Shown one piece after another: positions 7,364 to 32,525 of a stretch of 32,525 nucleotides of DNA (position 1 is its first letter; each line of letters opens with the position of its first letter). A model generated the notes under the pieces. It saw nothing but the letters and a program-made list of their open reading frames with translations. It had not been told where the DNA came from and did no database searches. The stretch is from a virus. Its lineage: Duplodnaviria > Heunggongvirae > Uroviricota > Caudoviricetes. A program made the position numbers and the translations under genes. The stretch lies in IMG/VR virus record IMGVR_UViG_651053023_000008; one strand, written 5' to 3'.

Positions 7364-7383
7364 TTAACAGGAGCTTTATTTAT

Positions 7384-10752: not shown

Positions 10753-10753
10753 T

Positions 10754-12792: not shown

Positions 12793-12794
12793 GC

Positions 12795-13094: not shown

Positions 13095-13231
13095 AAAGAA
13101 TCCGATAAGTAAAGCGTCCCGTGATGAACTCCGCCGTCTGGCGCACAACCTGACATGGCGGGAAATCCAGAGCGGCGCACTGAAATCTGCATACGAAAGT
13201 TTACAGCGTAGTGAGCAACAGGAGGGCACAC

Positions 13232-13813
13232 ATGGAAAATGAACAACGCCCCACCCGTGGCCGTCTTTCCAAAGTGGATTTACTCCCGGACAGCATCCGG
13301 GAGCAGTTGCATCAGATGCTGCGGGAAAAGCGGCACACGCAGGAAGAAATCCGCGAAGCCATCAACGCCCTGATTGACGAACACAACCTGCCGGAAGAGA
13401 TGCAGTTAAGCCGGACGGGCTTAAACCGCTATGCCATCCGCATGGAAAAAGTCGGGGCAAAAATCCGTGCCTCCCGCGAAATGGCCGAAGTCTGGGCGGC
13501 AAAGCTGGGTTCCGCGCCGACGTCAGACGTCGGCAAACTGCTGATGGAGTTTGTAAAAACGCTGGCTTTTGAAACGTCCATGTCGATGGCAGAAGACGAC
13601 AAGCCCGTTGCACCGAAGGCGCTGGGGCAACTGGCGCTGGTTGCCCAGCGTCTGGAAGCGGCAGCCATGACCAGCCATAAACGCGAGAAAGCGATCCGTG
13701 ATGCGTTTGCGCAGGAGATGGCAGAGAAAACCGAAGAACTGGTCAGAACGGGCGGTCTGTCAGGCGGTGCGGCTGACACCATCAAACGAGACATTCTGGG
13801 GATTAGCGTATGA
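13232..13813 (+). CDS. Mu gp27-like protein (putative terminase small subunit)
   Basis: ATG 13232 with an AGGAGG ribosome-binding site at 13220-13225; position immediately upstream of the large terminase. Confidence 0.6.
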   Translation: MENEQRPTRGRLSKVDLLPDSIREQLHQMLREKRHTQEEIREAINALIDEHNLPEEMQLSRTGLNRYAIRMEKVGAKIRASREMAEVWAAKLGSAPTSDVGKLLMEFVKTLAFETSMSMAEDDKPVAPKALGQLALVAQRLEAAAMTSHKREKAIRDAFAQEMAEKTEELVRTGGLSGGAADTIKRDILGISV

Positions 13814-16913: not shown

Positions 16914-17670
16914 AACCTTCATCCCGAAAGAGGCGCTGGCGTGGCTGAAGGCGAAGAAGCTGCGCCCCGGTTTTGATTACCGGGATGTATGGCGGGAAGA
17001 ACACCGGAACAGCTTCACCGTGGCAAAAATGCTGCAACTGGATTTGTTGTCGGATGTGAAAGCCCTTGTGGAAGACGCCCTGCAAAGCGGGCAGACGTTC
17101 AGCGAGTTCCGGGAGATGCTGCAACCGTTGCTGATAAAACGCGGATGGTGGGGCGTACAGGAGATGGATGATCCGCTGACGGGTGAAACCCGCACCGTGC
17201 AACTGGGCAGCGACCGCCGCCTCCGCACGATTTTTGACACCAACATGCGCACCGCCCGCGCGGCGGGCCAGTGGGAACGCATTCAGCGGACAAAGCGGGC
17301 CATGCCGTATCTGATTTATGAGCTGGGGCCATCCCGTGAGCACCGGGCGGAGCATGTGAAATGGGCGCGTCTGTGTCTGCCGGTAGATCATCCGTTCTGG
17401 CAGACACATTTTGCCCCTAACGGCTGGGGCTGCAAATGCACCATCCGTCAGGTCAGCCGTGGTGAGTATGCGCAACTGGCGGCACAGGGCACCATTCACA
17501 CCGAAGCGCCGGAAATCAGAACTGTCCGCTGGGTGAACAAACGTACGGGCGAAGAGGAAGAGGTGCCGGAAGGGATTGATCCGGGCTGGAACTACAATCC
17601 CGGCATAAACCGTGAGCAGGAGCTGGCGCGCCAGCTGGCGACCAAACAGGCCCGTTTTGACAGTGAGTAG
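16906..17670 (+). CDS. F: head morphogenesis protein, Mu F family
   Basis: Internal ATG 16906 overlapping the portal stop; 254 aa. Confidence 0.7.
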   Translation: MRETFIPKEALAWLKAKKLRPGFDYRDVWREEHRNSFTVAKMLQLDLLSDVKALVEDALQSGQTFSEFREMLQPLLIKRGWWGVQEMDDPLTGETRTVQLGSDRRLRTIFDTNMRTARAAGQWERIQRTKRAMPYLIYELGPSREHRAEHVKWARLCLPVDHPFWQTHFAPNGWGCKCTIRQVSRGEYAQLAAQGTIHTEAPEIRTVRWVNKRTGEEEEVPEGIDPGWNYNPGINREQELARQLATKQARFDSE

Positions 17671-17812
17671 CCCTCCCGCCGTAAATCCCCCTGAAACGCA
17701 TCAGAAACGCGTTTTTTATTCTGATGGCGTGAATGTGCATTCTGACGTTTTTGAAGATGCTGTGGCGTTTTTGAAGGGGGTTTTGAAGGGGGTGTTTCCC
17801 CGTTTTCAGTGA

Positions 17813-17835
17813 AGCCGGTAAATCCGGCTTTTTTT
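17813..17835 (+). terminator. rho-independent terminator (second copy of the element found after mor)
   Basis: Stem AGCCGG 17813-17818, loop TAAAT, stem CCGGCT 17824-17829, T-run 17829-17835. Confidence 0.7.
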
Positions 17836-17884
17836 CTGCCTTCCGCATACTGACCGTCGGTAACCCCAAACGACGGAGACTGAC

Positions 17885-18847
17885 ATGCAACCGGAACTGC
17901 TGGCGCTGTGTTTTTCCCTGCCAGAACCCATCCCTGAGCTGACACCTGCTCAACTGCCGGAATGGCTTGAACTCGTCCCTGCGGGTGAGTTCACCGGGCG
18001 CGATGGCCGGACGTGGATTAACCGCAATCCGCATGAGGTGGTCACCCGCTCGTCCGACATCAAAATTCCGGTGGACATTGAACACGCCACCGAAATTAAA
18101 GGGCAACGCGGTGATGAAGCCCCGGCGTATGGCTGGGTGGAAGAACTGCGCGTGACGGACAGCGGCACCATTGAAGGCCGTGTTGTCTGGAGCGAGTACG
18201 CCCGGTGGATGCTGAGCGAACGCCGCTACCGCTATTACAGCCCGGCGTTTTTCTTTGACGCAGACGGTGTGGTGACGCGCCTGTCCAGCGTCGGGCTGAC
18301 CAACAAACCTAACCTGGACTTTCCTGCACTGAATACGGAGAAAAACCCGATGACAGTACCTGTGCAAATCACCGGCCTGCTTGGGCTGGCTGAATCTGCC
18401 ACGGTGGACGATACCGTGGCCGCCATTAAACAACTTCAGGAGAACGAACAGGTGGCGCTGAACCGCGCACAGACACCTGACCTGACGAAGTTTGTGCCGG
18501 TGGAAACCCACAATCTGGCACTGAACCGTGCCGAAACCGCAGAACAACGCCTTCAGCAACTGGAAGAGAAGGAAGCAGAAGCGCTTGTGGATGCGGCCAT
18601 CGAAGCCGGAAAAGTGGCCCCGGCAAACCGTGACATGTTCCTTGCCACCTGCCGCACGGAAGAAGGCCGCAAACAATTTGCGGAATACACCAAAGGTGCA
18701 CAGCCGCTGGTGAACAACGACAAGCCCAGCCAGGGCAAGGATAAACCCGCGCAGACACTGACCGACGCCGAACTGGCGATGTGCCACAGCATGGGTATTA
18801 CCGGGGAAGAGTTCCTCGCCGCTAAACCTAAACAGGAGAATAACTGA
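17885..18847 (+). CDS. I: head maturation protease and scaffold (Mu I family)
   Basis: 320 aa; N-terminal protease-like domain, C-terminal Ala/Glu/Gln-rich helical scaffold-like region; directly upstream of the major head gene. Confidence 0.8.
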   Translation: MQPELLALCFSLPEPIPELTPAQLPEWLELVPAGEFTGRDGRTWINRNPHEVVTRSSDIKIPVDIEHATEIKGQRGDEAPAYGWVEELRVTDSGTIEGRVVWSEYARWMLSERRYRYYSPAFFFDADGVVTRLSSVGLTNKPNLDFPALNTEKNPMTVPVQITGLLGLAESATVDDTVAAIKQLQENEQVALNRAQTPDLTKFVPVETHNLALNRAETAEQRLQQLEEKEAEALVDAAIEAGKVAPANRDMFLATCRTEEGRKQFAEYTKGAQPLVNNDKPSQGKDKPAQTLTDAELAMCHSMGITGEEFLAAKPKQENN

Positions 18848-19749
18848 TGGGAGCAGTCACTTCCGAAGTCCTTCACGCGCTGACCACCTGTCTGAGCGCC
18901 GCTTATACCCGTGGTCTGAGTGGTGTCACCCCACAATGGCAGCGCATCGCCTCTGAAATCCCGAGTTCGTCCGCTTCCAATACCTACGGCTGGATGAAAG
19001 ATTTACCGGAGATTAAGGAATGGGTCAGCGCCCGTCAGATGGCAACGCTGGACGGTTATGGTTACACCCTTGCGAACAAAACCTGGGAAAGTTCGATCCG
19101 CGTTAAACGCGAACACATTGAAGACGATCAGATTGGTCAGTACAGCATTATCGCTGAACGCTATGGCCGCCAGACGTCGGAGTTCCCGGACAAGCTGTGT
19201 TACCCCCTGCTGTGTGCCGGGTTTAACACCCTGTGTTTTGACGGTCAGAACTTCTTTGATGAAGACCACCCGCTGGGCGACGGCACCTGCAGCAACGTTG
19301 TCGGCACCCCGGCATCAGACCAGGGAGAACCGTGGTTCCTGATTGATGATTCTCAGGTACTGAAACCCATCATCTGGCAGACGCGACGCGCCTTTAAGTT
19401 TGAAGCCCTGGATGATCTGAACAGCGAGCACACCTTCAAGAATAACGAGTTCCTTTACGGGGTGGACGGTCGCTGCAATGCGGGCTTCGGCTTCTGGCAG
19501 ACCGCCGTCGGTTCCCGTGCGGCACTGACAGCGGAGAACTACGAGAAGGCCAGCAATCTGCTGCTGGGTATGAAGGCCACCAACGGTGAACCGCTGGGCA
19601 TCCGCCCGACCACCCTTGTGGTGGGGCCGAAAAACCGTGCAGCCGCGAAGCGCATCATTGACGCCATGCTGGTTAACGGCGGCGATTCCAACATCTGGTA
19701 CAAGGATGTGGACATCGTGGTCAGCCCGTTCATCACCACCCCGGCATAA
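18847..19749 (+). CDS. T: major head subunit (Mu T family)
   Basis: 300 aa, ATGA-coupled to I; matches the Mu-like major capsid protein family in length and position. Confidence 0.8.
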   Translation: MGAVTSEVLHALTTCLSAAYTRGLSGVTPQWQRIASEIPSSSASNTYGWMKDLPEIKEWVSARQMATLDGYGYTLANKTWESSIRVKREHIEDDQIGQYSIIAERYGRQTSEFPDKLCYPLLCAGFNTLCFDGQNFFDEDHPLGDGTCSNVVGTPASDQGEPWFLIDDSQVLKPIIWQTRRAFKFEALDDLNSEHTFKNNEFLYGVDGRCNAGFGFWQTAVGSRAALTAENYEKASNLLLGMKATNGEPLGIRPTTLVVGPKNRAAAKRIIDAMLVNGGDSNIWYKDVDIVVSPFITTPA

Positions 19750-19832
19750 CCCGTCATCCGTAATCTGTTGTAACCCGCAATGACTGGCTGATTAGCTGTA
19801 TCGGCACCAACCTGTCACCGCACCCGGCGTGG

Positions 19833-20426
19833 ATGTGGGCCGCGTCATACGGCGCAACGGCAGCGTATCACCTTGCCATTGACCCGGCGCGTCCGCTTCA
19901 GACGCTGGTCCTGACCGGCATTCTGCCGCCTGCGCGTAATGTTCGCTGGGATATGCCGGAACGTAACCTGCTGCTGCATGACGGCATTGCCACGCACATG
20001 GTGGACGCCGGGGATAACGTCTGCATAGAGCGTGAAATCACCATGTACCGGGTTAATCAGTACGGTGATGCGGATGTGTCGTACCTTGATGTGCAGTCAC
20101 CCGCCACGCTGGGCCGTATCCGTTACATCATCAAGAACCGTTTCACGAACCGTTATCCGCGCCACAAGCTGGCAGATGATGACGTGCTGGACTCACTGGA
20201 TGCCGGTCAGCCGGTGATGACGCCGAAGCTGTGCACCGCAGAGCTGCTGGATATCTGCCAGACCGAACTTATTCCTGCGGGCCTTGTGGAGAACTTCAGC
20301 GATTACAAGGACACGCTTCAGGTGACACGCGACAGCAGCGATAAAAACCGTCTGAACTTTATCTGTCACCCGAATCTGGTGAACCAGCTGCGTGTGCTGG
20401 CAGGCCTGATTCAGTTCAAGCTTTAA
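19833..20426 (+). CDS. hypothetical tail-region protein; possibly the C-terminal remnant of a contractile-sheath gene
   Basis: 197-aa ORF. The reading frame is open upstream to 19764 with no start codon and no ribosome-binding site before ATG 19833; it sits where the sheath gene would be in Mu. Confidence 0.4.
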   Translation: MWAASYGATAAYHLAIDPARPLQTLVLTGILPPARNVRWDMPERNLLLHDGIATHMVDAGDNVCIEREITMYRVNQYGDADVSYLDVQSPATLGRIRYIIKNRFTNRYPRHKLADDDVLDSLDAGQPVMTPKLCTAELLDICQTELIPAGLVENFSDYKDTLQVTRDSSDKNRLNFICHPNLVNQLRVLAGLIQFKL

Positions 20427-20435
20427 GGGGGCCGC

Positions 20436-20783
20436 ATGGCAAAAATTCTTGGCATGGCGACCATTCGCGTGAATGGCCGCGAAATTAAAACCGAGGGGAA
20501 ATCCACGCTGAATCCGGGCGGCTTCAGTCGCACCCAGCATATGGGCGGCGGCAAGGTCTGGGGTATCTCCAGCAAGATGGCCTCGCCGTCCATCAAGGTG
20601 ACCATTGCGGCGGCAGCGGATATGGACGTGATTGAAATCAGCAGCTGGGAAGACGTCACGGTGATGTTCTACGGCGACAACGGCCTGAACTACATGATGA
20701 CGGGTCCGCCACGGATAACCCGGCGGAGCTGGACGAGGATTCCGGCACCATCAGTGCGAACTTTATCGGTGAAAAATGCGTGA
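20436..20783 (+). CDS. tail tube protein (Mu M-like)
   Basis: 115 aa directly upstream of the chaperone and tape-measure genes. An alternative 3' end in another frame would stop at 20791. Confidence 0.55.
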   Translation: MAKILGMATIRVNGREIKTEGKSTLNPGGFSRTQHMGGGKVWGISSKMASPSIKVTIAAAADMDVIEISSWEDVTVMFYGDNGLNYMMTGPPRITRRSWTRIPAPSVRTLSVKNA

Positions 20784-20792
20784 AGGTGTGAC

Positions 20793-21288
20793 ATGGCTGA
20801 AATGGAATTTGAACTGAAACACGGGCTTCTGACCGGCAAAGGCACGGCAGATGAAACCCTGCATAAAACCGTGAAGCTGCGCGAACTGACCGCCAGTGAT
20901 GTGATTGATGCACAACTGGCCGCAGAACGCGTCGTCATGGGCGGGAACGGAAAGGCGGTGGCCTACTGCTCTGAAGTGCTGATGGGGCTGGAGATGATGC
21001 GCCGTCAGGTTGCGGCCATCGGCAGCATTCCCGGCCCGCTGGACATGAAACAGCTGCGAATGCTCCACCCGGCAGACCTTGAGCTTATCAGCACGAAAGC
21101 CGCTGCGCTGGATGACATGCTTGAGGAGGTGGCAACGCGGGGGCGAACTGATGCCGCTGGCGGCGGCACTGATGAACCTGCTGGTTAACCTGTCCCAGCG
21201 ATTCAGCATTCAGTACCTGGAACAGCTGCCCCTGCGGCAGCTGTTCCGCCTGATAAAGCAACTGGAGAAACAGCATGGCAACAGGTAA
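20793..21288 (+). CDS. tail assembly chaperone with a putative programmed frameshift (short product 20793-21188; extended product to 21288)
   Basis: Two overlapping frames; the second frame has no independent ribosome-binding site and ends at the tape-measure start. G5 run at 21139-21143. Confidence 0.6.
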
Positions 21289-23122
21289 CCGTCTCAGCAC
21301 GGAAATCATGATCAACCTTGCCGGGAACCTGACCGCCAAAGCCCGGCAATACGGCGCAAATATGTCGCAGTTCGCCCGGAATCATCAGAAGGCCATGCGC
21401 CTTGTCAAAGCCACAACGGAGGCCGCAGGACGCGGCCTTGATACGCTGGGTAACCGCTACACGGCGATGATTGCCGGGTTCGGTGGTGGTATGACCCTTA
21501 AAGGCCTGACAGATTTTGATGCACAAATCCGCCGTGCGGGTACAAATGCAAAACTGACCGATGAGCAGGTATCCCGTTTAAGAAAAAACATCCGGGAAAC
21601 AGCCAGAATGTCAGACATTCGCCTCAGTGCGCAGGTTTTACTGGAAGGCCAGGATGCACTGTATGGCCTGACAGGTAAGCCGGAATTTGTTGAAAAAAAT
21701 ATCCGCAATCAGGGGCTGGCCACGCAGGCATTCGGGACTGCGCCACAGGATGTCGCGGCACTGATGGCACAGATGTCCGAAAAACAGATTGAAGATCCTC
21801 AGGAAGTTGAAGACATGTTCGACCGCTTCTACCACCAGTTTTCCATTGGTTCGGTTGGTGTGGATCAACTGGCGCGCGTATCAGCAAAACTGTTTTCGAT
21901 TTATACCGGTGGTGGCAAAGAGGCGATGGCCCAGTTGGGGGCACTTGAGCAGATGCTGGCGAAAACAACCGGTTCTGCAGATGAAGCGGTAACCGCGCTG
22001 AACAGTATCTGGAGTGAAGTCACCCGAAAAGACAACATCAAGTTTCTGAAAAGAAACGGTGTTGATGTGCTTGATCCAGTCACAGGGAAACCCCGTCTGC
22101 CCTATGACGTGATCAGAGACGTTGTCAGGCGGGCAAAATTTAATGAGCAGAATTTGCAGGATGTTTTCGGGGACACCTCCATGCGGGGATTAAGGGCGCT
22201 GTCCAGTGAAGAAGCCCTTCAGTTAACAGAAAAAATGATTTACGCCCCGGTTGAATCCGGTGCCATGAAAAAAGCCGCGGAGAAAAACGCCCAGAGTTTT
22301 CAGTCTGCGATGCAGTCCCTGAAGAATGAATATGAGGTTTTTGCTGAAAAAAATCTGGCAAAACCCGTTCAGGACCTGGCGGATGCGCTCAACAGCGTGG
22401 ACCAGAACACCGTCCAGAACTGGTTGCAGGTCGGTAAATATATGGCGATTGCTGTGGGCGGCATTATCGCCATCCGAAAAACGTACCAGTTAGGTAAAAC
22501 CCTCCACGACATCATGAATCCCAAAGGGAAAGGCAAAGGAATACCCGGTGGCATTACAGATGTTTTCGGCTCCGGTGTGATGCCGGTTTATGTGGTTAAT
22601 ATGGGCAGTGGCGGGATGAATGGTAATACCGGCGGTCTGCCGGATACACCAGATTCATCGCGCAATCCCCGCAATCCTCGGGGGCCGGGTAACCGTGGAG
22701 GAAAGGCAGGTAAAGGCGCTGGCATCATTGCCGGTGCTCTGGAGTTTTACGATTTTCTGACCACACAATACGCCCTGCCGGGTGAGGTTGACAGTCTCAC
22801 TAAATCCGTTGCCGGTGATGCCAGCGCCAGCCCGCGGGAGCGCGAGTTCGCGCAACAGAGTCAGGACAACCAGAAAGCGCTCGAGTCCGTCTGGCGTAAG
22901 GTAACGGACTGGTTTGACTCGCTGAACGGGAAGAACATCGGCGGGATGCCGTCATGGGGTGGAATGCAACCCTCGCAGCTTGCACCGTTTCTTTCTCAAC
23001 AATTGCAGGGGGAAATCCGCGTGGTGGTGGAAGGTGACGCCCGCGTGAAAAGTGTCAGAGTGGATCAACCCGGCGTCAGACTCAGTGCGCAGGCTGGCGT
23101 CACCAGCGTGGAGCAAGGGTAA
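21275..23122 (+). CDS. tail tape measure protein
   Basis: 615 aa; helical with a Gly-rich hydrophobic segment; preceded by the frameshifted chaperone. Confidence 0.75.
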   Translation: MATGNRLSTEIMINLAGNLTAKARQYGANMSQFARNHQKAMRLVKATTEAAGRGLDTLGNRYTAMIAGFGGGMTLKGLTDFDAQIRRAGTNAKLTDEQVSRLRKNIRETARMSDIRLSAQVLLEGQDALYGLTGKPEFVEKNIRNQGLATQAFGTAPQDVAALMAQMSEKQIEDPQEVEDMFDRFYHQFSIGSVGVDQLARVSAKLFSIYTGGGKEAMAQLGALEQMLAKTTGSADEAVTALNSIWSEVTRKDNIKFLKRNGVDVLDPVTGKPRLPYDVIRDVVRRAKFNEQNLQDVFGDTSMRGLRALSSEEALQLTEKMIYAPVESGAMKKAAEKNAQSFQSAMQSLKNEYEVFAEKNLAKPVQDLADALNSVDQNTVQNWLQVGKYMAIAVGGIIAIRKTYQLGKTLHDIMNPKGKGKGIPGGITDVFGSGVMPVYVVNMGSGGMNGNTGGLPDTPDSSRNPRNPRGPGNRGGKAGKGAGIIAGALEFYDFLTTQYALPGEVDSLTKSVAGDASASPREREFAQQSQDNQKALESVWRKVTDWFDSLNGKNIGGMPSWGGMQPSQLAPFLSQQLQGEIRVVVEGDARVKSVRVDQPGVRLSAQAGVTSVEQG

Positions 23123-24396
23123 TGACAACAGGCAATGGCAAATGGGACGGGCTGCGCGACGCCTCGTTTCGCGGCGTTCCCTTCTTTCTGGTGGATACAG
23201 AAGGCACCGGTGGCCGCAGGGCTATTCCCCGTGCTTACCCCCGGCGTGAAACCGCCTGGACGGATGATAACGGGGCCGTTCCCGGTCAACAACAGATTAA
23301 CGCAAAGCTGCCAGGTAAAAACTTCCGGGATGATTTAAACGCCCTTTTAGACGCGCTCAATACCCCAGGCCCCGGCGAGCTTATCCACCCGTGGTTCGGG
23401 ATACAGACCGTACAGGTTGGCAAGGTCACTCATCGCCTCAGCACGGAGGAAGACGGCATTGCGTATGTCACCTTTGAAGTGTTTGAGGCAGGCGAGCGCC
23501 TGTTCCCGTCTGCGGCGGATAACACGCAGCAGGAAGTGCTAACGGGCATTGATGCGGTGAAAGCCGCCATTGACGATGGCGACTGGTTCGGCGCACTCGA
23601 CGGGCTGGGTGAGATGGCCGACAGCTTTCTGGCCGATATGGAAAACCTTGTGGCTAACCTGCCCACGCTACCGGCAGCACTGAATCAGTGGATGGACAGG
23701 CTGAACCATTTTAAGGAGATGGCCGGAACCATCATTGCCACGCCGGGGCGTCTGGTCAGTGAGTTGTCCTCGTTCATCGACGGCGTGGTTGATCTGGTGA
23801 CGGAACCACCCGAAGCACTCGCGGTTTACACGACATTACGCAACCAGTGGGTCGGAGAACGCGCCCGACAGGTTGCCACCGGCGCACTGCCGGAAGATAT
23901 CACCGTGAAGCCAGGCAGCGTGGCAGACGGCGAAATCGGCTTTGCCATCGGTCTGTCACCGGGTTATCAGCCGGTATCTGACAGCCTGCAAAAGAACATT
24001 GATGACTTCCGCCAGGTGGTTGTGCTGGAAACCCTGCTGGGACAGGCAAATGCCGTGGCCTCGATGACGTTCGATACCAGTGATGCGGCATTATCTGCTG
24101 GTGACACGCTGGCGGCTGAACTGCATGAGCAGGCGGTGGCGGCGGTGGAAAATAACCAGCGGGCATTATGGCGAACGCTGCGCGATTTACGGCAGGCCGT
24201 GATTACGGATGCCCGCGAGCGTGCCGCCCGTCTGCCGGAAACCCGACAGGTGACGCTGACCACAACCACATCTGCCGCATTGCTGGCATGGCGCGAACAT
24301 GGTGACACAAGCCGACGGGATGAAATCGTGCAGCGTAACCGCCTGCGCCATCCGTCATTCATCCTGCCAACGCAACCAGTGGAGATTACCGACTGA
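23122..24396 (+). CDS. P: DNA circularisation protein-like tail protein (Mu P family)
   Basis: 424 aa; N-terminal region resembles the Mu gp43 N-terminal domain; position after the tape measure. Confidence 0.65.
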   Translation: MTTGNGKWDGLRDASFRGVPFFLVDTEGTGGRRAIPRAYPRRETAWTDDNGAVPGQQQINAKLPGKNFRDDLNALLDALNTPGPGELIHPWFGIQTVQVGKVTHRLSTEEDGIAYVTFEVFEAGERLFPSAADNTQQEVLTGIDAVKAAIDDGDWFGALDGLGEMADSFLADMENLVANLPTLPAALNQWMDRLNHFKEMAGTIIATPGRLVSELSSFIDGVVDLVTEPPEALAVYTTLRNQWVGERARQVATGALPEDITVKPGSVADGEIGFAIGLSPGYQPVSDSLQKNIDDFRQVVVLETLLGQANAVASMTFDTSDAALSAGDTLAAELHEQAVAAVENNQRALWRTLRDLRQAVITDARERAARLPETRQVTLTTTTSAALLAWREHGDTSRRDEIVQRNRLRHPSFILPTQPVEITD

Positions 24397-25467
24397 TGGA
24401 ATCCGTGATTCTTACCGTTGACGGCAAATTGTGGGAAGGCTGGACGGAAATGTCCGTCAGCCGTTCCCTGAAGGCGATTGCCGGTGAGTTTGATCTCAGT
24501 GTGACAACCCGCTGGTCAGCGGCGGCACCGCGCGTGATACGTGAGGGGCAACCCTGCACGGTCAGGCTGGGTGCGGATACCGTGCTGACAGGGTATATCG
24601 ATGATTTTATCCCCAGCTATGACGCAGATAACGTGGAGATTCGCGTCATGGGGCGCGACAAAAACCGGCGACCTGGTGGACTGCTCTGTGGTGCATTCAT
24701 CCGGGAAATGGAAAGGCGTGCGGCTGGAACAGGTAGCGGCTGATGTCTGCCGCCCGTTCGGGATAGCCGTCATCACGGAAACCCCGACCGGGGAGGCGTT
24801 TGCGTCCGTTGTTCTGGAACAGGGTGAAACGGGCTTTGAACTGCTCGACCGGCTGGCAAAACAGCGCGGCGTTCTGCTGACGTCTGACGGCGCAGGTAAC
24901 CTGATTATCACCCGCGCCTCTTCCGTTCGCGCGGGCGTGTCACTGGTGCTGGGGAAAAATATCCTCGCCGCCCGTGGGCGCTTCAGCTGGCGGGAGCGTA
25001 ACAGCCAGTACATCATCAAGGGCACCACCAGTGCCGGTGGCAAACTGTGGGACAGCCAGCCTGCCTCGATGGTGGGTGGTCGCCAGTACATCACCGAAGA
25101 CCCGGAAATTAACCGTTACCGCCCGCGCATTCTGGTCAATGAAGACAGCCTGACCGTGGGCGGGGCCAGCATTCGCGGGGAATGGTACAAAGCCCGGATG
25201 CTGGGGGAATCCCGCACGACGGAAATCACGGTGGCAGGCTGGCGCGAACAGGGCGACAGCGGCCCGCTGTGGCAGACCAACCGCCTTGTCGATATCGACG
25301 ACAGCATTCAGAACCTGAAAACCACCTGGCTGATATCCGGGGTGACCTGGACGGATGGCGCACAGGGGCGGATGACGGTTCTGGCGCTGGTTCCGCCTGA
25401 ATCACTGGATATGCCGGAAATGAAAGCGAAGACGAAGAAAACAAAGGCGGTGGCCACATGGGATTAA
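24396..25467 (+). pseudogene. baseplate hub protein (Mu Q-like) with a +1 frameshift in an A5 run (24660-24664)
   Basis: ORFs 24396..24743 and 24601..25467 join into one 357-aa product (..VMGRDKTGDLVDCSVV..) if one A is removed. Confidence 0.6.
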
Positions 25468-25994
25468 ACGCAATTGCCCGCCGTCTGCGGCTGCTGGTTG
25501 ACCGTGCCGTTGTGCGCATGGTGTCTGACAGTCTGGAGCGGCAGAACCTGCAAATCCAGACGCTGGCTGATGCCACCGACGACGACGTGGAACGCTTCCA
25601 GAACTACGGGTTTACTTCCGTTCCGCCGGAAGGTTCTGAAGCCATCGTGCTGGCCGTGGGCGGACGGCGTGACGGGCTGGTTGCCATCGCGGTGGAGGAC
25701 AAGCGATGTCGCCCGAAAGGCCTGTCCCCCGGTGATGTCCGGCTGTATCACCAGGACGGTAAATCGCATATCACGTTAAAGAAAGGCGGAATTATTGAAA
25801 TCACAGGAGAACAATTAAACGTTTCAGGGAAAACGGTAAATCTCACCGCCGACGAATTGCTGAATATTATCGGTAAACAAATGAAATTCGTCGGTCCCTG
25901 TGAATTTACTGCAGATGCCACAATCAACGGTAAATCTTTCATCAAACACATTCATAAGGACGGCGACAATGAGAAGACATCACCGCCCATATGA
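25458..25994 (+). CDS. baseplate spike protein (gpV-like)
   Basis: 178 aa, overlapping the end of the Q-like gene; position in baseplate cluster. Confidence 0.55.
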   Translation: MGLNAIARRLRLLVDRAVVRMVSDSLERQNLQIQTLADATDDDVERFQNYGFTSVPPEGSEAIVLAVGGRRDGLVAIAVEDKRCRPKGLSPGDVRLYHQDGKSHITLKKGGIIEITGEQLNVSGKTVNLTADELLNIIGKQMKFVGPCEFTADATINGKSFIKHIHKDGDNEKTSPPI

Positions 25995-26443
25995 CGACCG
26001 GAATCCGCTGGAATAATACTCTCTCACGGGGTGACATCACCGTCACCCATAACGGCCTCTCACTGGATGAGGGGCTGGTCACTCAGGTTCTTATCTGCCT
26101 TTTCACTGATGCCCGTGCTGATGACGATGATGTCATTCCAGATGGTTCCGGCGACCCGCGCGGCTGGCCGGGCGACACGTACAGCGATTTTTCGTGGGGT
26201 TCCCGCCTGTGGCTGCTTGAGCGCGAAAAACTGACGGAAGATGTCCGCCTGCGCGTGGAGGATTACGCGCGACTGTCCATGCAACCGCTGCTGCGGGCCG
26301 GTTACGCCCGTAACGCCACCGTCACGGCCAGAATCATCGTCCCTGACCGTATTGCCTTTCAGGTGGTGTTAACCCGCCCGGACAAAACCACGCTCACAAT
26401 CGAAATCACCCGCCGATGGGAGGCCACCATTAATGCCGTATGA
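25991..26443 (+). CDS. baseplate protein (Mu gp46-like)
   Basis: 150 aa, translationally coupled between the spike and J-like genes. Confidence 0.55.
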   Translation: MTTGIRWNNTLSRGDITVTHNGLSLDEGLVTQVLICLFTDARADDDDVIPDGSGDPRGWPGDTYSDFSWGSRLWLLEREKLTEDVRLRVEDYARLSMQPLLRAGYARNATVTARIIVPDRIAFQVVLTRPDKTTLTIEITRRWEATINAV

Positions 26444-27510
26444 AATCCCCACGCTGGGCAAACTGATTGCCGACGGCGAAAAAGATATTGCGTATGAACT
26501 CGGCCTGCAAAAGCTGCCGCCTGTCAGTGTTGAGCAGGCGCTGAATGTGTCATTCAGCAGTCAGGTCCGGGATTTATACGACCATCAGAGCTGGATCAAG
26601 GACCAGATAATTCCGTCCACTACGTCTGATGATGAAACCATTATCAAAAACAGCAACGTATGAAGGGGTTATCCGCAAGCAGGCCACCTTTGCCAGCGGG
26701 CCGGTGACCTTCACCAGTCAGTCCCCCATTCCGGCAGAAACCCGGATGCAGTCCGACACGAATCAGGTGTATCAGGTACTCACATCCGGCGAGGTACAGG
26801 ACGGCGAGGTCACTGTCATCGTGCAGGCTGAAGAAGCCGGTGTGGCGGGCAATCTTGCTGCCGGTGCCGTGCTGACCCTGTTATCCCCGCTACCCGGAAC
26901 GGGCAGCACAGGCGCGGTGACTGAAAGTGGCATCACCGGTGGCGCAGACATCGAATCCATCGCAGAGCTGCTGGACCGTCTGCTGTATGTGCGCCGCAAT
27001 CCCCCGGTGGGCGGTGCACTGCATGATTACGTCATCTGGGCGCGTGAAGTGCCGGGTGTCAGCCGCGCGTGGGCATGGGATGCGTGGCACGGCCCCGGCA
27101 CGGTCGGGCTGGCATGGCTTTATGATGACCGTGAAGACATTATCCCCACACGGGACGACCTGAAGACAATGGAGCAGTATCTGTTCTGCCACAAACACCC
27201 TGCCACCGGCGTGATGGTGGGCAAACCGGGCGGCATCGAGGTCTGGCCGGTGCAGGTCAGGCTGAAGAAGCTCGACCTGTCCATCCGTCTGACACCGGAC
27301 AGCCAGGCGAACAGGAACGCCGTCCGGGCAAACCTGACCGCATTGCAGAAAACGCTGGCCCCCGGTCAGATGCTGCCGGTGTCCTCGCTGCGCACGGCCA
27401 TCGGTATGACGTCCGGTATCACGGATTACTTCCTCAACATCGGGGAGGACACCACCAGTGATGTGGATGAGCTTATCACCATCGGGGAGGTGACATGGCT
27501 CACAGCGTGA
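26433..27510 (+). pseudogene. baseplate J-like protein (Mu gp47-like) with a +1 frameshift in an A5 run (26646-26650)
   Basis: ORFs 26433..26663 and 26629..27510 join into one 359-aa product (..DDETIIKTATYEGVIRKQATFASG..) if one A is removed. Confidence 0.6.
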
Positions 27511-28079
27511 CGGAATGGCTGACCGCACTGCAACAGGTCATGCCACGGGGTAAGGCATGGCCGCGTGATAACGACGCGGATTTAAACCGTTTTTTAAGGG
27601 CGCTTGCAGAGCGTTTAACCCGCGTTGAATACGACGCCTCGCGTCTGCATGTGGAGATGCGACCGGAAACCACGCTCCAGTTGCTGCCGGAGTGGGAGCA
27701 ATATCTGGCGCTGCCGGAATGCGGAATTGCCGCCACCACAACGGAAGCCCGCCGCCGGGCCGTGGTGGAGAAATACCGCCGCAAAGGCGGGCTGGCCACC
27801 TGGCAGATTGAAGCCGCTGCGGCGGCGCTGGGATTCACTATTAAGGTGACGGCCGTTCTGCCGCACCACTGCCTGCGTGACTGCATGTACCCGCTACATC
27901 CGGCGCGGTATCGCTGGCTGCTGAAAGTGGAAGTCCCGGACAAAGATGCCGGGCGGTTTACCTGTATTGATGACGTCATGACGCCATTAATCAGCGAACG
28001 GACCCGCGAGCTGGAATGCCTGCTGAAGCATTACCGGCTGGCGGGCACGGAATATGAATATTATTACACCGGAGAATAA
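27495..28079 (+). CDS. tail protein (Mu gp48-like)
   Basis: 194 aa following the J-like gene. Confidence 0.55.
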   Translation: MAHSVTEWLTALQQVMPRGKAWPRDNDADLNRFLRALAERLTRVEYDASRLHVEMRPETTLQLLPEWEQYLALPECGIAATTTEARRRAVVEKYRRKGGLATWQIEAAAAALGFTIKVTAVLPHHCLRDCMYPLHPARYRWLLKVEVPDKDAGRFTCIDDVMTPLISERTRELECLLKHYRLAGTEYEYYYTGE

Positions 28080-28082
28080 TTT

Positions 28083-28970
28083 ATGTTTCATGTGGATAAT
28101 CCGACGGGTGTGCCAGTGATGCCACCTGTCGCGGCTGAATTAAGCAAAACAACGCTTTATTTTACCGAAGGCGGGAACGGTATTCCGCCCACTTATCCGG
28201 GGCCGGACTGGTTTAATATTATTCAGTCTGAACTGCTGGAAATTCTCCGGCAGGCAAATATCAAACCGGATAAAAACACAACCGACCAGATTATGACAGC
28301 GCTGAAAAAAACTGTTTATTACGAACAGTGGTTCAGCCGGAGCTATTGCCGGATTAACCGGTCAGAATAATACGTTCCCGTATTTTACGGCGAAGACACA
28401 ATGGCATTAACGCCGCTCAGTGCTTTTGTGCGCGGTATTCTCGGGAAAAACACAGCCGGTGAAATTATCGACGCGCTTTTATTACGTGACACGGTAAATA
28501 AAGCTAATAGTGCTGTACCGAATACCCGCAGGGTCAACGGCATGGCTCTGTCTTCGGATATCACCATCAGCAACATCAGCGGCAACGCCGGAACGGCAAC
28601 CCGACTTCAGACGGCCCGCAGGATTAACAATGTGCTGTTTGATGGCAGCCGCGATATCACGATTTCTGCGGGAATGTCACAAACTGAAGGTGACAACCGT
28701 TACCAGCAAAAAAACACGGCGTCAAAAGCCGGTAATGGCTGGTTTAAGGACACGTCCACCGGGGTGATTATTCAGTGGGGGTATCTCGGCAATGCCAGTG
28801 CCGGGCTGACGTTTCCGATATCATTTCCGTCAGCATGTACCAGCATCACTATTACCAACGCATACACCCGTGCTGATTACTCTATTTCCCTGAAATCGTT
28901 ATCAGCAGCAGGTGCGACATTCAACAGCGAGAATAACGGCGTTATGTACTGGACAGCGATAGGGTATTAA
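28083..28970 (+). pseudogene. tail fibre gene (S-like) interrupted by two compensating indels (extra A in the A7 run 28305-28311; likely missing G at 28389-28390)
   Basis: Conserved fibre N-terminus (MFHVDNPTGVPVMPPVAAELSKTTLYFTEGGNGIPP). The fibre motif GLTGQNNTFPYFT is encoded in frame +1 between the two ORFs; the C-terminal ORF 28401..28970 continues with MALTPLSAFVRGILGK. Confidence 0.55.
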
Positions 28971-29410
28971 TGATGACTATTTATTTCAGCCCATCAACAA
29001 ACGGTTTTTATCATTCTGGCCTTCAGGGTGATTATGAAAATGCGGGAACGTGGCCGAATGATTTACAGGAAATCACGGATGAAGAATATCAGAGACTGTT
29101 ACAGGGCCAGACTGACGGTTTTATTATTGTATCTGGCGAAAACGGATATCCGGTATTAAAAGAACCCGTAATTAACTGGCAGCAGAAAGCGGAAACGCAA
29201 CGCCAGCACCTGCTGGCTGAAGCAAGGGAAATCACCTCCGACTGGAAAACCGAGCTGGAGCTGGGCACCATCAGCGACGATGATAAAGCCCGTCTTACGC
29301 AGTGGATGGCATATATCAAAGCGGTAAAGGCACTGGATTTAAGCACCGTTACTGACGAAGACTCCTTTTATTCCATCAACTGGCCGGAGCGTCCCGATGC
29401 CGCAGCTTAA
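28970..29410 (+). CDS. tail fibre assembly chaperone (Tfa-like)
   Basis: 146 aa immediately after the fibre gene; Tfa-like sequence. Confidence 0.7.
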   Translation: MMTIYFSPSTNGFYHSGLQGDYENAGTWPNDLQEITDEEYQRLLQGQTDGFIIVSGENGYPVLKEPVINWQQKAETQRQHLLAEAREITSDWKTELELGTISDDDKARLTQWMAYIKAVKALDLSTVTDEDSFYSINWPERPDAAA

Positions 29411-31004
29411 AGGTGTGATTAAAACGCCCACGGGAGAACCGCTGGGCGGCGCAACCATTACATTGACCTCCCTGCACAACCGCGCAGGGATTCTGAAAAG
29501 TGTTTTCAGCCATGTCACCACACAGAACGGGGAATATGACTTCCCCGTTCTGCCGGGTGTGTACAGCGTTCGCCTGACACAAAGCACACAGCGCCTTTCA
29601 GAAATCGGTGTCATCCGCGTTTATGAAGATTCAGCGGACGGTTCGTTGAATGATTTTCTGGGTGCAACCGATATTGACCTGCGCCCGGAAGCCCTGAAGA
29701 AATTCGAAGAGCTGGCGCAACAGGCGCAGCAAAGCGCAGAAGCCGCAGCGGAAAGCGAGCGACAGGCCGGGCAACATGTCGCTGATGCGCAGAAGATAAA
29801 GAAAGACTGTCAGACGCTGGCGGATAACGTACAGCAGAACGCAGAAGCCGTAGCGGCCAGCAAACAGCACGTTGAACAGCTGGCCTCAGAAGTTGAGCTG
29901 AACGCCGGGCAGGTGCAGCAGGGCGTGCAGAATGTTACTGATGCGGTAAAAAAGGCGCAGCAGGCAGCAAAGGATTCTGCTGACAGTGCCACAGATTCGA
30001 AAAACAGTGCTGACAATGCGGCACTGAGCGAACAGAACGCACAAAAACACGCGCAGAAAGCTGAACAACACGAGCAGCAGACTAAACAATATGCGCAGGA
30101 TGCAGCGACCGCCGCAGAATCAGCAGAGAACGCCAAAGGCGAAATTGACGAAATTCTGGAAGGTGGCTATCTCAAGATAAAAAACAACTTTCAGGAAATT
30201 GTTGATGCTGGCCCGTCAGCACTGGCTCAGGCCCAATGGAATTTACAGATTTCCGGGGTGAAAAATAAACAGGTAATTGCCACCCCTTATACATGGCCAT
30301 CCAGAACTGAGTATGAACAAAGGGTGCATCTGCCACTCGCCGGGGCTTACGGATTTGGCTACACATTTGAAGACCAAAGCCAGGGGCGAATAAATTTTAA
30401 TGAGGGCTATACGGCGTCGTGGTGGTCACAGTGGGCGAAACCTGGTCGTTATTACGTCAGCGCCAGTGATAAAGAATACCTCGCACCTGAAGGAGAAAGG
30501 TGGGGGATTGTTGATTTGCTGTGGCTTAATGGCAGCGGATATAACGATGCTTCGAAGGTTCTGAAGATACTGGCTTTTTACGACTCAGACGGGCACTTAC
30601 ACATAGGCAAGCGCGTTGGTCAGAGCGACTGGTCAATAAGCTGGCGCAAGCTGGCATCGCTCTCTGATGTCAGGGCCATGCTGTATTCATATATTTATAA
30701 TAATTACAACAGAGAATGGCGAGACCCGGAACTGGGAGGTTTAATTCTGGCGTCATACCAGGGAACCGCAGACGGCGACACAAATATAAAAGTATCCCGT
30801 GGTCAGACTTATCCCGGCTCGCGACTCGCTCCTGTGGCGATAGAATGCCAGTTCACCCCATCCGGCACGTATGCTGCAACACCGCGATTCTACATTACCG
30901 GCTGCAAGAGCAAATCACTCCCCGGAACTTATATTTCATTGTCTGGCGCGCCAACAACATACAGCGACCAGGCATTTGTTGCGCTATTCATGAGGATTGT
31001 ATGA
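29397..31004 (+). CDS. side tail fibre protein (lambda Stf-like N-terminus, coiled-coil shaft, C-terminal receptor-binding region)
   Basis: 535 aa; N-terminus parallels lambda Stf (..TITL......VYSV.L......IRVYEDS.DGSLNDFL); long Ala/Gln/Glu-rich helical shaft; AT-richer 3' third. Confidence 0.75.
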   Translation: MPQLKGVIKTPTGEPLGGATITLTSLHNRAGILKSVFSHVTTQNGEYDFPVLPGVYSVRLTQSTQRLSEIGVIRVYEDSADGSLNDFLGATDIDLRPEALKKFEELAQQAQQSAEAAAESERQAGQHVADAQKIKKDCQTLADNVQQNAEAVAASKQHVEQLASEVELNAGQVQQGVQNVTDAVKKAQQAAKDSADSATDSKNSADNAALSEQNAQKHAQKAEQHEQQTKQYAQDAATAAESAENAKGEIDEILEGGYLKIKNNFQEIVDAGPSALAQAQWNLQISGVKNKQVIATPYTWPSRTEYEQRVHLPLAGAYGFGYTFEDQSQGRINFNEGYTASWWSQWAKPGRYYVSASDKEYLAPEGERWGIVDLLWLNGSGYNDASKVLKILAFYDSDGHLHIGKRVGQSDWSISWRKLASLSDVRAMLYSYIYNNYNREWRDPELGGLILASYQGTADGDTNIKVSRGQTYPGSRLAPVAIECQFTPSGTYAATPRFYITGCKSKSLPGTYISLSGAPTTYSDQAFVALFMRIV

Positions 31005-31570
31005 TGCAGATTAAAGAAATCACCAGCCCCCGTTATACCGAATCCGGTGCGATTGACTGCGACGTTCTGTTTGAGGAAATGGAAGCCCCTGTTCCCTACA
31101 CTGCCACGCCGGACGATACAGCGAAAACCGGTCAGCAAATCTGGCAGGAACTGCAAAGCGGAAAATGGGGTGAAATAACCCCGTTTGCCGTCACGCCGGA
31201 ACTTATCGCAGCGGCGAAGGATGCCAAAAAACGGGAGATTGAGGCATGGCGCACAGAACAGGAGGCGCAGCCATTCACGTTCGAATGGAACGGTCGTACC
31301 TGGAATGCTGGTCCCGATTCGATGGCTCGCATTGCGCCCGTGGCAATGGCCGCAAAAGTGGCAGGTGCACGGGCAACGCTGGGGTGGGGGGATGCAGCAA
31401 ACAGCCTTGTCACCATGACAATGGCGCAGCTTCAGGAGCTGGCAGCAACAATGGCGCAGGCGCAAACCGAGCGCAATACTGTGATTTATCGTCGTCAGCG
31501 TGAGATGAAAGAGCAGCTTTCCCTGTTGACCACACTGAACGAAATAAGAGCATTCACACCCGGCGATTAA
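31001..31570 (+). CDS. tail fibre assembly protein or chaperone
   Basis: 189 aa; ATG overlaps the fibre stop. Confidence 0.55.
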   Translation: MMQIKEITSPRYTESGAIDCDVLFEEMEAPVPYTATPDDTAKTGQQIWQELQSGKWGEITPFAVTPELIAAAKDAKKREIEAWRTEQEAQPFTFEWNGRTWNAGPDSMARIAPVAMAAKVAGARATLGWGDAANSLVTMTMAQLQELAATMAQAQTERNTVIYRRQREMKEQLSLLTTLNEIRAFTPGD

Positions 31571-31693
31571 ATAATCATTTTGTATAGTTTATGACGATCG
31601 ATAACATCATATCGATCGTCGGTTTGCATCATATGTGATTAAATACCCCCAGCCCTCCGGGCGGTCATGTCTGGTTATTACACAGGGGGAATC
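31571..31693 (+). promoter_or_regulatory. com and mom promoter region with Dam GATC sites (31596-31599, 31614-31617) inside 7-bp inverted repeats
   Basis: GATCGAT ... ATCGATC arrangement directly upstream of com, consistent with the methylation-sensitive upstream region of the Mu mom operon. Confidence 0.55.
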
Positions 31694-31879
31694 ATGGACT
31701 CTGTTCGCTGTAAAAACTGCAATAAATTACTGTTTAAAGGAGGTTTTAAGCATATAGAAATTAAATGCCCTCGCTGTAAACGTTACATTGTCATATCGAA
31801 TGCCAAAGAGCATCCCACGGAGCTGTATTGTGGGAAAAGAGAAGAAATCACGCATTCTGACAAAACCCTGCGTTATTGA
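31694..31879 (+). CDS. com: Com zinc-finger translational activator of mom
   Basis: 61 aa from ATG 31694 (AGGGGGA ribosome-binding site); CKNC...x16...CPRC zinc finger; overlaps the mom start. Confidence 0.85.
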
Positions 31880-32525
31880 GTATGAAGGTCGTATTGTCGG
31901 CTATGGTTCAAAGGAGCTACGTGTTGAAACCATATCCTGCTGGCTGGCCCGCACAATCATTCAGACAAAACACTATTCCCGCCGTTTTGTGAATAACTCC
32001 TACCTGCATCTTGGCGTATTCAGCGGACGTGATCTGGTTGGCGTTCTTCAGTGGGGATATGCCCTTAACCCCAACTCAGGGCGTCGGGTCGTGCTTGAAA
32101 CGGATAACCGGGGCTATATGGAACTGAACCGCATGTGGCTACACGACGACATGCCCCGCAACTCTGAATCACGGGCTATCAGCTACGCGCTGAAAGTTAT
32201 CAGGTTACTGTATCCGTCAGTTGAGTGGGTTCAGTCTTTTGCAGACGAACGCTGCGGACGTGCTGGCGTGGTATATCAGGCGTCGAATTTTGATTTTATT
32301 GGTAGCCATGAAAGCACGTTCTACGAGCTGGACGGCGAGTGGTATCACGAGATAGCGATGAACGCGATTAAGCGCGGAGGGCAACGAGGCGAGTATTTGC
32401 GGGCTAATAAGGAGCGGGCCGTGGTACACAAATTTAATCAGTATCGCTACATCAGGTTCCTGAACAAGCGCGCAAAAAAGCGCCTAAACACCAAGCTATT
32501 CAGGATTCAGCCATACCCGAAGTGA
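31800..32525 (+). CDS. mom: Mom DNA modification protein
   Basis: ORF overlapping the 3' end of com and ending at the window edge; sequence matches Mu Mom as I recall it. Start uncertain (ATG 31800 or GTG 31830). Confidence 0.85.

Follow-up and report, generated by a model that had tools for sequence, protein, structure and literature searches.

A probably chimeric Mu-type prophage of Escherichia coli with two co-oriented tail fibre modules and no detectable inversion switch

The viral DNA analysed here (the window: the whole 32,525-nucleotide stretch of IMG/VR record IMGVR_UViG_651053023_000008) is probably a transposable Mu-type prophage of E. coli with a chimeric genome, in which Mu/D108-like ends enclose a late block of the type of Klebsiella phage Kp4866-3 with a fixed, non-invertible fibre locus from which both fibres would be expressed. 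The initial annotation had described two co-oriented fibre and chaperone modules with neither gin nor an invertible G segment, and both points hold: all four genes lie on the + strand and every search for a switch was negative. It had also read this arrangement as a modular replacement of the inversion system. G and gin are indeed absent and fibre/chaperone cassettes stand in their place, but, to judge by the alignments, the unit replaced is the entire lysis-head-tail-fibre block (~10.1-31.6 kb) and not the inversion system locally. No description of this chimeric lineage was found in the literature, of which our coverage was limited.

Mu/D108-like DNA is present only at positions 1827 to ~9630 and ~31583 to 32525, that is, 7.8 kb on the left and 0.95 kb on the right (88-91% identity). 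The left end runs attL, c, ner, A, B and then kil to gemA; positions 1827-8512 are 90.6% identical to D108 and 88.5% to Mu in nucleotide sequence, and amino acid identity to Mu is 92% for MuA, 93% for Gam, 82% for GemA and 96% for Mom. Between the ends, the ORFs from 10123 to 28370 encode proteins 54-85% identical to those of Kp4866-3 and 26-50% identical to those of Mu, and the GC content rises from 48.9% in the early region to 57.4% in the late block and drops back to 48.3% in com-mom. The element thus departs from Muvirus members (Mu, D108, SfMu), which are collinear and share high nucleotide identity over early region, late region and right end. These comparisons bear on the reading of the initial annotation, namely that in a Mu/D108 genome only the G segment and gin were excised and a second fibre and chaperone took their place. 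The Mu/D108-like ends fit such a local exchange, as do the right-hand junction, which falls exactly where gin ends in Mu (the mom operator), and the homology of the fibre 1 N-terminus to the constant part of Mu S. We nevertheless consider it unlikely: everything from lysis to gp48 is closer to Kp4866-3 than to Mu, so the replaced unit measures ~21 kb and not the 3.7 kb of the G-gin region; tandem fibres also occur in phiP27 and in relatives without Mu-like com/mom; and there is no gin trace upstream of the operator. Exchange of the whole late block is the reading we prefer. Because this block is Kp4866-3-like and its relatives without Mu-like com/mom have tandem fibres too, the layout most likely arrived with the block and was not inserted for G/gin. 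Of the relatives of this late block, one from Kluyvera has an invertase, so the direction of change cannot be proven, and the block may have had an invertase-bearing ancestor.

The known switches of the Gin/Din type (Mu G, P1 C, e14 P and that of Sp18) combine an invertase gene, paired inverted 26-bp sites of the gix/cix/hix type, and fibre/chaperone sets in opposite orientation that share one constant N-terminus. The window has none of these: (i), a tblastn search with Mu Gin gave a best E-value of 2.3, and an invertase profile HMM built from three invertases gave 1.6 at best on the six-frame translation of the window (controls, 5e-112 and 4e-106); (ii), the best match to the gix consensus in the window is 13/18, inside the 12-14 range of 50 shuffled sequences, while Mu gixL and gixR, used as positive controls, both score 16/18; (iii), the longest inverted repeat in 27400-32525 spans 31 nt at 71% complementarity, and none in this interval is meaningful; and (iv), each fibre has its own start and an unrelated N-terminal domain. 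The initial annotation had allowed that gin could lie beyond the window. In relatives, however, a Mu-like attR and host genes follow directly after mom; since their host DNA begins ~115 bp past mom, gin is not to be expected further right. The relatives' attR is nearly identical to that of Mu and would fall past the end of the window, the last position of which is the mom stop codon.

The right-hand junction is sharp. In an alignment with Mu and two relatives, Mu-like sequence resumes ~13 nt past the stop of chaperone 2, at the mom operator, and the boundary lies at the same point in relatives regardless of the upstream gene; in STEC388 it is identical although no DUF4376 gene precedes the operator. 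A stretch of ~30 nt similar to the 3' end of Mu gin was considered as a gin remnant and set aside, as it coincides with the GATC operator of mom and is thus no proof that gin was ever there. The chaperone stop had been placed 97 bp from the mom promoter region; this needs adjusting, in that the earliest ATG in frame within the com ORF (31667) is reached after 96 nt and lies upstream of the com start found in relatives (31694), and the GATC operator begins ~25 nt after the stop. Table 1 lists the features of the locus.

Table 1. Genes and regulatory region of the fibre locus and right end (positions in the window).
Feature	Position	Strand	Evidence
gp48 / YmfQ-type baseplate wedge protein	27495..28079	+	Pfam Phage_Mu_Gp48, 5.9e-32
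Fibre 1, short baseplate-type, 295 aa if intact	28083..28970	+	Pfam Gp53-like_C, 6.7e-14
Chaperone 1, tail fibre assembly protein	28970..29410	+	Pfam Caudo_TAP, 3e-25
Fibre 2, 535 aa	29397..31004	+	Pfam phage_tail_N (PF08400), 1.8e-27
Chaperone 2 (predicted), DUF4376 protein, 189 aa	31001..31570	+	Pfam DUF4376, 1.7e-16
Spacer with mom regulatory region	31571..31693	+	GATC at 31596-31599 and 31614-31617
com, translational activator of mom	31694..31879	+	Pfam Zn_ribbon_Com; 73% aa identity to Mu Com
mom, DNA modification gene	31800..32525	+	Pfam Mom, 1.1e-75; 96% aa and 89% nt identity to Mu

The locus is anchored by gp48, the last conserved baseplate gene, which is 31% identical to Mu gp48 and 56% to that of Kp4866-3 at the amino acid level. 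From there to chaperone 2 the genes are tightly packed: a 3-nt gap precedes fibre 1, its stop overlaps the start of chaperone 1 by 1 nt, fibre 2 starts 14 nt inside chaperone 1, and the ATG of chaperone 2 overlaps the fibre 2 stop in a 4-nt ATGA. The mom operator, com and mom lie directly 3' of chaperone 2. In 27400-32525, promoter- and terminator-like sites are no more numerous than in shuffled sequences, and an Rfam scan of the whole window returned zero families above threshold.

Fibre 1 had been called S-like, which is borne out by 48% identity between its N-terminus and residues 1-75 of Mu S; it belongs to the tail fibre family phrog_1833 (3.6e-39). In the window the gene is split into two ORFs (28083-28370 and 28401-28970) by a run of seven A at 28305-28311, where relatives have six, together with a stop codon (TAA) at 28368 and the loss of one base at 28388; an intact version of 295 aa is found in E. 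coli AP027411.1. Chaperone 1 matches phrog_188 (4.9e-46) and is 37% identical to the C-terminal part of Mu U'.

Three parts make up fibre 2 (phrog_2636, 1.3e-198): the collar-type domain at the N-terminus (29397-29789), a helical shaft rich in Ala and Gln (~29682-30146) and, at the C-terminus, the receptor-binding part (30147-31001). The shaft and the AT-richer C-terminal domain proposed in the initial annotation are both recovered: A, Q, E and K make up 59% of shaft residues 96-250, and the C-terminal part has 49.1% GC against 55.7% in the N-terminal domain and 53.2% in the shaft. The proposed likeness to lambda Stf holds only for the N-terminal ~130 residues (37-38% identity); with lambda orf-401 there is 30% identity over 244 aligned positions, and the C-terminal part does not resemble lambda orf-314. 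Against PDB sequences, the N-terminal domain matches that of lambda Stf (9e7m/9mgh, 4.1e-9) and the collar spike gp40 of Vibrio phage XM1 (7kjk, 5.5e-7). An AlphaFold2 model of residues 240-535 has a pLDDT of 69 and a pTM of 0.36, and Foldseek found nothing below E 1e-3 for it in the PDB; the best matches (7.8e-3), to staphylococcal phage baseplate and receptor-binding proteins, were not taken as an assignment of the distal fold.

The second fibre had also been credited with a chaperone of its own, and a DUF4376 gene does adjoin it (61 bits, cut-off 25), but this is not lambda Tfa, to which no similarity was found downstream of fibre 2. DUF4376 proteins have been described as tail fibre chaperones in Alteromonas phage V22 (gp27) and phage A5 (gp9) (PMC7289586, PMC10579305), and the window shares with the V22 gp27 type a small DUF4376 protein encoded directly downstream of a fibre gene. 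By this likeness, the product is the predicted chaperone of fibre 2.

The closest known counterpart of the locus is that of the Stx2e phage phiP27, where L53-L57 have the same order and orientation and end the late operon in the same way (wedge, fibre, Caudo_TAP-type protein, PF08400 fibre, DUF4376 protein); the window thus has a tandem fibre locus of the phiP27 type. L56 is 33% identical to fibre 2 over its full length, and L57 is 78% identical to chaperone 2. phiP27 also has a Mu-type baseplate gene set, to which the baseplate proteins of the window are only 26-37% identical; it differs in not being transposable, in having attR directly after the locus, and in lacking com/mom. Mu and D108 share with the window the early region (88-91% nt), com-mom (89% nt) and the order gp47, gp48, fibre, chaperone, but they carry gin, gix sites and the inverted S'/U' set, their late genes are only 26-50% identical at the amino acid level, and the window differs from them in its DUF4376 chaperone and in a second fibre whose N-terminus is of the lambda-Stf type. 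In Kp4866-3 and the related prophages of Klebsiella, Brenneria, Serratia and Pluralibacter, gp48 is followed by two co-oriented fibres, an assembly protein lies between these, and no invertase is present; their second fibre, however, repeats the S-type N-terminus and lacks PF08400, the DNA fetched for these relatives yielded no com or mom homologue, and identity between the MuA of the window and the transposase of Kp4866-3 is only 25%. Sp18 of E. coli O157:H7 Sakai is likewise a Mu-type transposable prophage with com-mom at its right end (Mom, 75% aa identity; other proteins, 25-73%), but it retains an invertible fibre region (PMC2669165), with an invertase 75% identical to Gin.

Among relatives of the window the layout is ordinary: phiP27 and hundreds of genomes have it, and E. 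coli annotations record it routinely. The assembly collection lists the identical gp48 protein in 1408 blocks, and all 10 distinct contexts compared for it have the five-gene order gp48, fibre, Caudo_TAP, fibre, DUF4376; a protein 100% identical to fibre 2 occurs on 68 contigs, matches were found in 194 of 5426 complete E. coli genomes, and ETEC1703 has a full-length copy of 35 kb at 2,610,400-2,645,600 of NZ_CP122923.1. The locus search, run with a gp48 alignment of two sequences (an alignment of window, Kp4866-3, Mu and phiP27 being too divergent), returned 14 loci, and tandem S-type fibres were seen in Klebsiella, Brenneria, Serratia and Pluralibacter. The STEC388 annotation lacks a DUF4376 gene after fibre 2, and none was called in L025. 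The layout being known from phiP27 and from routine E. coli annotation, no new mechanism is opened by it. The element is rather a clean case of transposable phages built from large interchangeable blocks, with Mu/D108 ends around the virion genes of another lineage, and the site after gp48 acts as a plug-in that can hold one long fibre, fibres in tandem or a fibre under invertase control within one lineage. For annotation this means that a G segment should not be assumed from Mu-like ends, and for host-range prediction or engineering that both fibres probably need considering in this lineage.

How would two such fibres be used? Each late infection would produce both of them together. Fibre 1 would dock on the baseplate through its Mu S-type N-terminus and fibre 2 at a different site, bearing in mind that domains of the Stf/XM1-gp40 type ring the tail or neck in solved virions: the lambda tail is encircled by a 12-mer collar of StfN (PMC12617516), and XM1 gp40 trimers attach to the neck of a myovirus (PMC10457771). 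lambda Stf and XM1 gp40 are homologous to the N-terminal ~90-190 residues of fibre 2, and Stf also has an Ala-rich helical shaft, but the gp37-like distal part and the downstream Caudo_TAP chaperone of the lambda Stf/Tfa pair are missing here, and the window has Mu-type contractile-tail genes, in which it differs from lambda and XM1. Domain homology and gene layout suggest that the fibres are co-expressed and co-displayed. Joint display is probable, given that their attachment domains are unrelated; a particle would then present two receptor-binding proteins at once, where Mu alternates between two by Gin inversion. A more specific picture, which we propose tentatively, is a Mu-type contractile-tailed lineage without a switch, every particle of which would carry S-type baseplate fibres and a neck or tail ring of the Stf-N type, the two sets being served by different chaperone classes. 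One large recombination event, with its right joint at the mom operator, would have placed this arrangement under Mu/D108 transposition and Mom control. Three proteins from the neck region of the full-length relative were compared with PDB sequences: one had matches to Mu gpJ, to a DUF1320 protein and, weakly, to CdnD, and no XM1 neck chain was matched by any of the three.

Alternatively, fibre 2 and the DUF4376 gene could be a passenger cassette from lambdoid or phiP27-like prophages and no part of the virion. PF08400 fibres are found mainly in lambdoid prophages, and the pair has its own GC profile and a DUF4376 gene close to that of phiP27 (the 78% given above). This seems improbable to us, given that fibre 2 starts within chaperone 1, that the pair is retained in all ten contexts and in phiP27 next to Mu-type baseplate genes, and that the homologous N-terminal domain is structural in the myovirus XM1.

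Virion assembly from this particular copy is, by its gene content, not likely: besides a 2.9-kb deletion, with its junction at 19766-19779, it carries homopolymer frameshifts, with the sheath truncated, connector genes deleted and fibre 1 interrupted. The A-run in fibre 1 raises the question of whether slippage between A6 and A7 switches the baseplate fibre on and off, as A7 occurs in the window and ETEC1703 and A6 in the near-identical L025 allele. We think this very unlikely. Such a tract is short, and particles in the off state would have no baseplate fibres. Baseplate genes of the window show two further A-run differences of +1, and one of -1 is also present; as split genes also occur in other assemblies of this lineage, the pattern is typical of homopolymer assembly errors. 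The sites that could be either real frameshifts or such errors are 24660, 26646, 28305-28311 and 28388. The same deletion and frameshifts could suggest that an inversion system once existed in this element and was lost by decay, but full-length and independent copies share the fibre locus and the mom-operator junction, and neither invertase nor crossover-site remnants are left, which makes such a loss highly improbable.

We propose that the fixed tandem fibres of this lineage would shift host range by cassette swaps, one unit being the 3' end of fibre 1 with its chaperone, the other the distal part of fibre 2 with or without the DUF4376 gene. Across relatives, the N-terminal ~580 nt of fibre 1 are kept while the 3' ~310 nt are swapped, breaks in identity lie at ~28660, 29189-29741 and 30991, and fibre 2 ranges from 498 to 1037 aa in length.

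Relative to Mu and D108, the element is a large-scale chimera in which D108/Mu-like ends flank a late block (lysis, head, tail and fibre genes) related to that of Klebsiella phage Kp4866-3 (an unverified record). The early region (1827-9632) is D108/Mu-like at 88-91% nucleotide identity: the segment 1827-8512 shares 90.6% identity with D108 and 88.5% with Mu, the left end and the c repressor agree with those of D108, not Mu, and several early proteins are close to those of Mu (MuA 92%, Gam 93%, gp11 89% and GemA 82% amino acid identity). From the lysis genes (~10.1 kb) to the N-terminus of fibre 1, the S-like short fibre, the ORFs (10123-28370) are 54-85% identical to Kp4866-3 versus 26-50% to Mu; the large terminase also resembles those of Shewanella/Vibrio Mu-like phages (58-71% amino acid identity) and BcepMu (53%). 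Mu-like DNA restarts ~13 nt past the stop of the DUF4376 gene, at the mom operator (31583-32525), com-mom being 89% identical to Mu in nucleotides and Mom 96% in amino acids, and in relatives it runs on into an attR almost identical to that of Mu. GC content follows the same mosaic (early 48.9%, late block 57.4%, com-mom 48.3%). Given Mu/D108-like ends and a Kp4866-3-like middle, the part missing relative to Mu/D108 is larger than the invertible G segment plus its invertase gene gin: everything from about mor through gin is replaced by the late block of another lineage. The modular replacement of the inversion system proposed in the initial annotation thus stands as a replacement, but its unit is the entire late block. 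The initial interpretation is in this sense partly supported; the tandem fibre locus is most likely the usual ending of this block, and not a substitute inserted for G/gin. To the left of the prophage, whose left end lies at ~1827, the host flank (1-1701) carries a trehalase gene on the minus strand (Pfam Trehalase, 1e-179).

The absence of a recombinase, also claimed initially, is borne out. Mu Gin reached a best E-value of only 2.3 by tblastn against the whole window, and an invertase profile HMM, built on Mu Gin plus one invertase each from Sp18 and Kluyvera, gave 1.6 at best when applied to all six translated frames, with positive controls at 5e-112 (Mu) and 4e-106 (Kluyvera). A scan with a 26-bp Din-family crossover consensus peaked in the window at 13/18, within what 50 shuffles produced, while both Mu gix crossover sites score 16/18; no inverted repeat in 27400-32525 is longer than one of 31 nt at 71% complementarity. 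The window's last base is that of the mom stop codon, and gin might have followed beyond this edge; this cannot be so, because in relatives a Mu-like attR of ~115 bp is all that separates mom from host genes. A gin remnant at 31583-31640 was considered and rejected: the operator stretch of Mu overlaps the last gin codons, so the likeness is attributed to the mom operator, in which two of the three GATC sites of Mu are kept (31596, 31614) and the third position reads GCATCATATG.

Two co-oriented fibre and chaperone modules are indeed present, Pfam and PHROGs agreeing on their content. A 3-nt gap separates gp48 from fibre 1, and the next three junctions are overlaps of 1, 14 and 4 nt; the locus has no excess of promoter-like or terminator-like sites over shuffles, and it therefore reads as one transcription unit. 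An Rfam search of the whole window found nothing.

Features of the fibre locus and positions of broken genes in the window
Feature	Position	Strand	Evidence or detail
gp48/YmfQ-type baseplate wedge gene	27495-28079	+	Pfam Phage_Mu_Gp48, 5.9e-32
Fibre 1	28083-28970	+	Pfam Gp53-like_C on C-terminus, 6.7e-14; PHROGs tail fibre
Tail fibre assembly gene (chaperone 1)	28970-29410	+	Pfam Caudo_TAP, 3e-25; PHROGs tail fibre assembly
Fibre 2	29397-31004	+	Pfam phage_tail_N (PF08400) on N-terminus, 1.8e-27; PHROGs tail fibre
DUF4376 gene (chaperone 2)	31001-31570	+	Pfam DUF4376, 1.7e-16; PHROGs tail fibre
Spacer	between DUF4376 gene and com		123 nt
com	31694-31879	+	Pfam Zn_ribbon_Com, 3.1e-07
mom	31800-32525	+	Pfam Mom, 1.1e-75
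gp44/P-like hub, break	24660		single-base homopolymer difference
gp47/J baseplate gene, break	26646		single-base homopolymer difference
Fibre 1, break	28305-28311; 28368; 28388		A7; TAA; missing base

This two-fibre architecture is not new: phiP27 has it, and it is common in annotated genomes. Genes L53-L57 of phiP27 have the same order, with 78% identity between L57 and the DUF4376 protein and 33% between L56 and fibre 2 over its full length. The identical gp48 protein occurs in 1408 blocks of an assembly collection, and all 10 distinct contexts shown carry gp48, fibre, Caudo_TAP, PF08400 fibre, DUF4376, com, mom and then host genes, with few exceptions (Caudo_TAP displaced by an IS in one, the PF08400 fibre cut at its 5' end in two, DUF4376 uncalled in one); a resolvase domain is absent from all 10. 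Matches were found in 194 of 5426 complete E. coli genomes. The fibre locus of E. coli AP027411.1 is 99.3% identical (and identical from 28401 on), and ETEC1703 holds a full-length, PGAP-annotated 35-kb copy in which no invertase gene is annotated or detected by the invertase HMM. No paper describing this chimeric lineage was found in the literature searched. Some E. coli genomes (loci L022-L031) contain this prophage two or three times at separate places in the chromosome (three times in GCA_047261855.1), which is consistent with active transposition.

Contents at the same position vary among the 14 loci examined from late-block relatives in other genera, so the site downstream of gp48 is a plug-in site, most commonly filled with tandem fixed fibres. 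Klebsiella, Brenneria, Serratia and Pluralibacter relatives have two co-oriented fibres, both with an S-type N-terminus, and an assembly protein in between; in Kp4866-3 and the Brenneria/Serratia/Pluralibacter loci (L006, 29405-32802; L011, 10588-14579) this protein consists of two Tfa-like halves (~291 aa) and no separate chaperone follows the second fibre. Phytobacter and Aeromonas relatives have a single long fibre. Kluyvera intermedia (L008, NZ_JAKCNS010000076.1, 10591-13338) carries a fibre, Tfa, an inverted start-less ORF for a fibre C-terminus (12205-12765, minus) and a serine invertase sharing 47.5% identity with Gin, with host rhaD next; the fibre gene contains one gix-like site (16/18, at 10985), whose partner appears degenerate. 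No com/mom homologues were found in the fetched DNA of other-genus relatives. Sp18 of O157:H7 Sakai represents a third, distant Mu-type lineage that has kept an invertase (75% to Gin; also PMC2669165): its locus (L034, 42806-49596) reads fibre, inverted assembly gene and fibre fragment, invertase, ~3 kb of extra genes and com-mom, with a Mom 75% identical to that of the window. Within the window's lineage, diversity comes from cassette exchange: the match to relatives breaks off at ~28660 (3' end of fibre 1 and 5' end of its chaperone gene), is regained at 29189-29741 and is lost again to ~30991. Lengths of fibre 2 in relatives run from 498 to 1037 aa, and in two of them no DUF4376 gene is annotated or called downstream of it.

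Fibre 2 had been likened to lambda Stf, which holds for its N-terminal ~130 residues only (PDB matches: lambda Stf N-domain 9e7m/9mgh, 4.1e-9; collar spike gp40 of the myovirus XM1, 7kjk, 5.5e-7); its distal part does not resemble lambda orf-314, and a model of the distal domain (pLDDT 69, moderate) gave no significant match in a PDB fold search. The shaft is rich in A, Q, E and K (59% together), and the C-terminal part is AT-richer as described (49.1% GC versus 55.7% in the N-terminal domain and 53.2% in the shaft). Its proposed own chaperone corresponds to the downstream DUF4376 gene, which does not encode a Tfa of the lambda type; a role as fibre chaperones has been described for the DUF4376 proteins of Alteromonas phages V22 and A5 (PMC7289586, PMC10579305). 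The 97 bp said to separate this gene from the mom promoter region is in fact the distance to the first ATG in frame with the com ORF, the GATC operator of mom beginning ~25 nt past the chaperone stop.

Over 75 residues, fibre 1 is 48% identical to the constant N-terminal part of Mu S, and the N-terminal attachment domains of the two fibres are shown to be unrelated. In lambda, a collar of 12 StfN copies sits at the gpV/gpM junction of the tail (PMC12617516), and in XM1 six gp40 trimers bind the neck via an StfN-type domain (PMC10457771). We hypothesize that fibre 1 would dock at the baseplate and that fibre 2 might form a ring elsewhere, most plausibly at the neck on a sheathed tail; neck proteins of a relative have no sequence match to the XM1 neck chains. 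Both fibres would then be produced and mounted on every particle, each folded by its own chaperone, such that a Mu-type myovirus could carry a baseplate fibre and a collar-type one at the same time, with constitutive dual specificity instead of alternation as the outcome.

The window prophage itself is defective. Relative to the ETEC1703 prophage it has a 2.9-kb deletion at a AACCCGCA microhomology (19766-19779), which links the end of the major head gene region directly to mid-sheath sequence and removes five small genes between them (head-tail connector region) along with ~60% of the sheath from its N-terminus; what is left of the sheath, ORF 19833-20426, is its C-terminal half alone. A tail cannot be built from this copy. 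Four single-base homopolymer differences from relatives also break three genes; sequencing or assembly error is judged more likely than biology, because three of the four are +1 in A-runs (the other is -1) and split genes are also seen in other assemblies of the lineage. The A7 allele of fibre 1 is found in ETEC1703 too, and a near-identical allele of another genome has A6. AP027411.1 carries two internally deleted copies in opposite orientation ~4 kb apart, both sharing the same fusion of a Mu F-like gene region to baseplate J.
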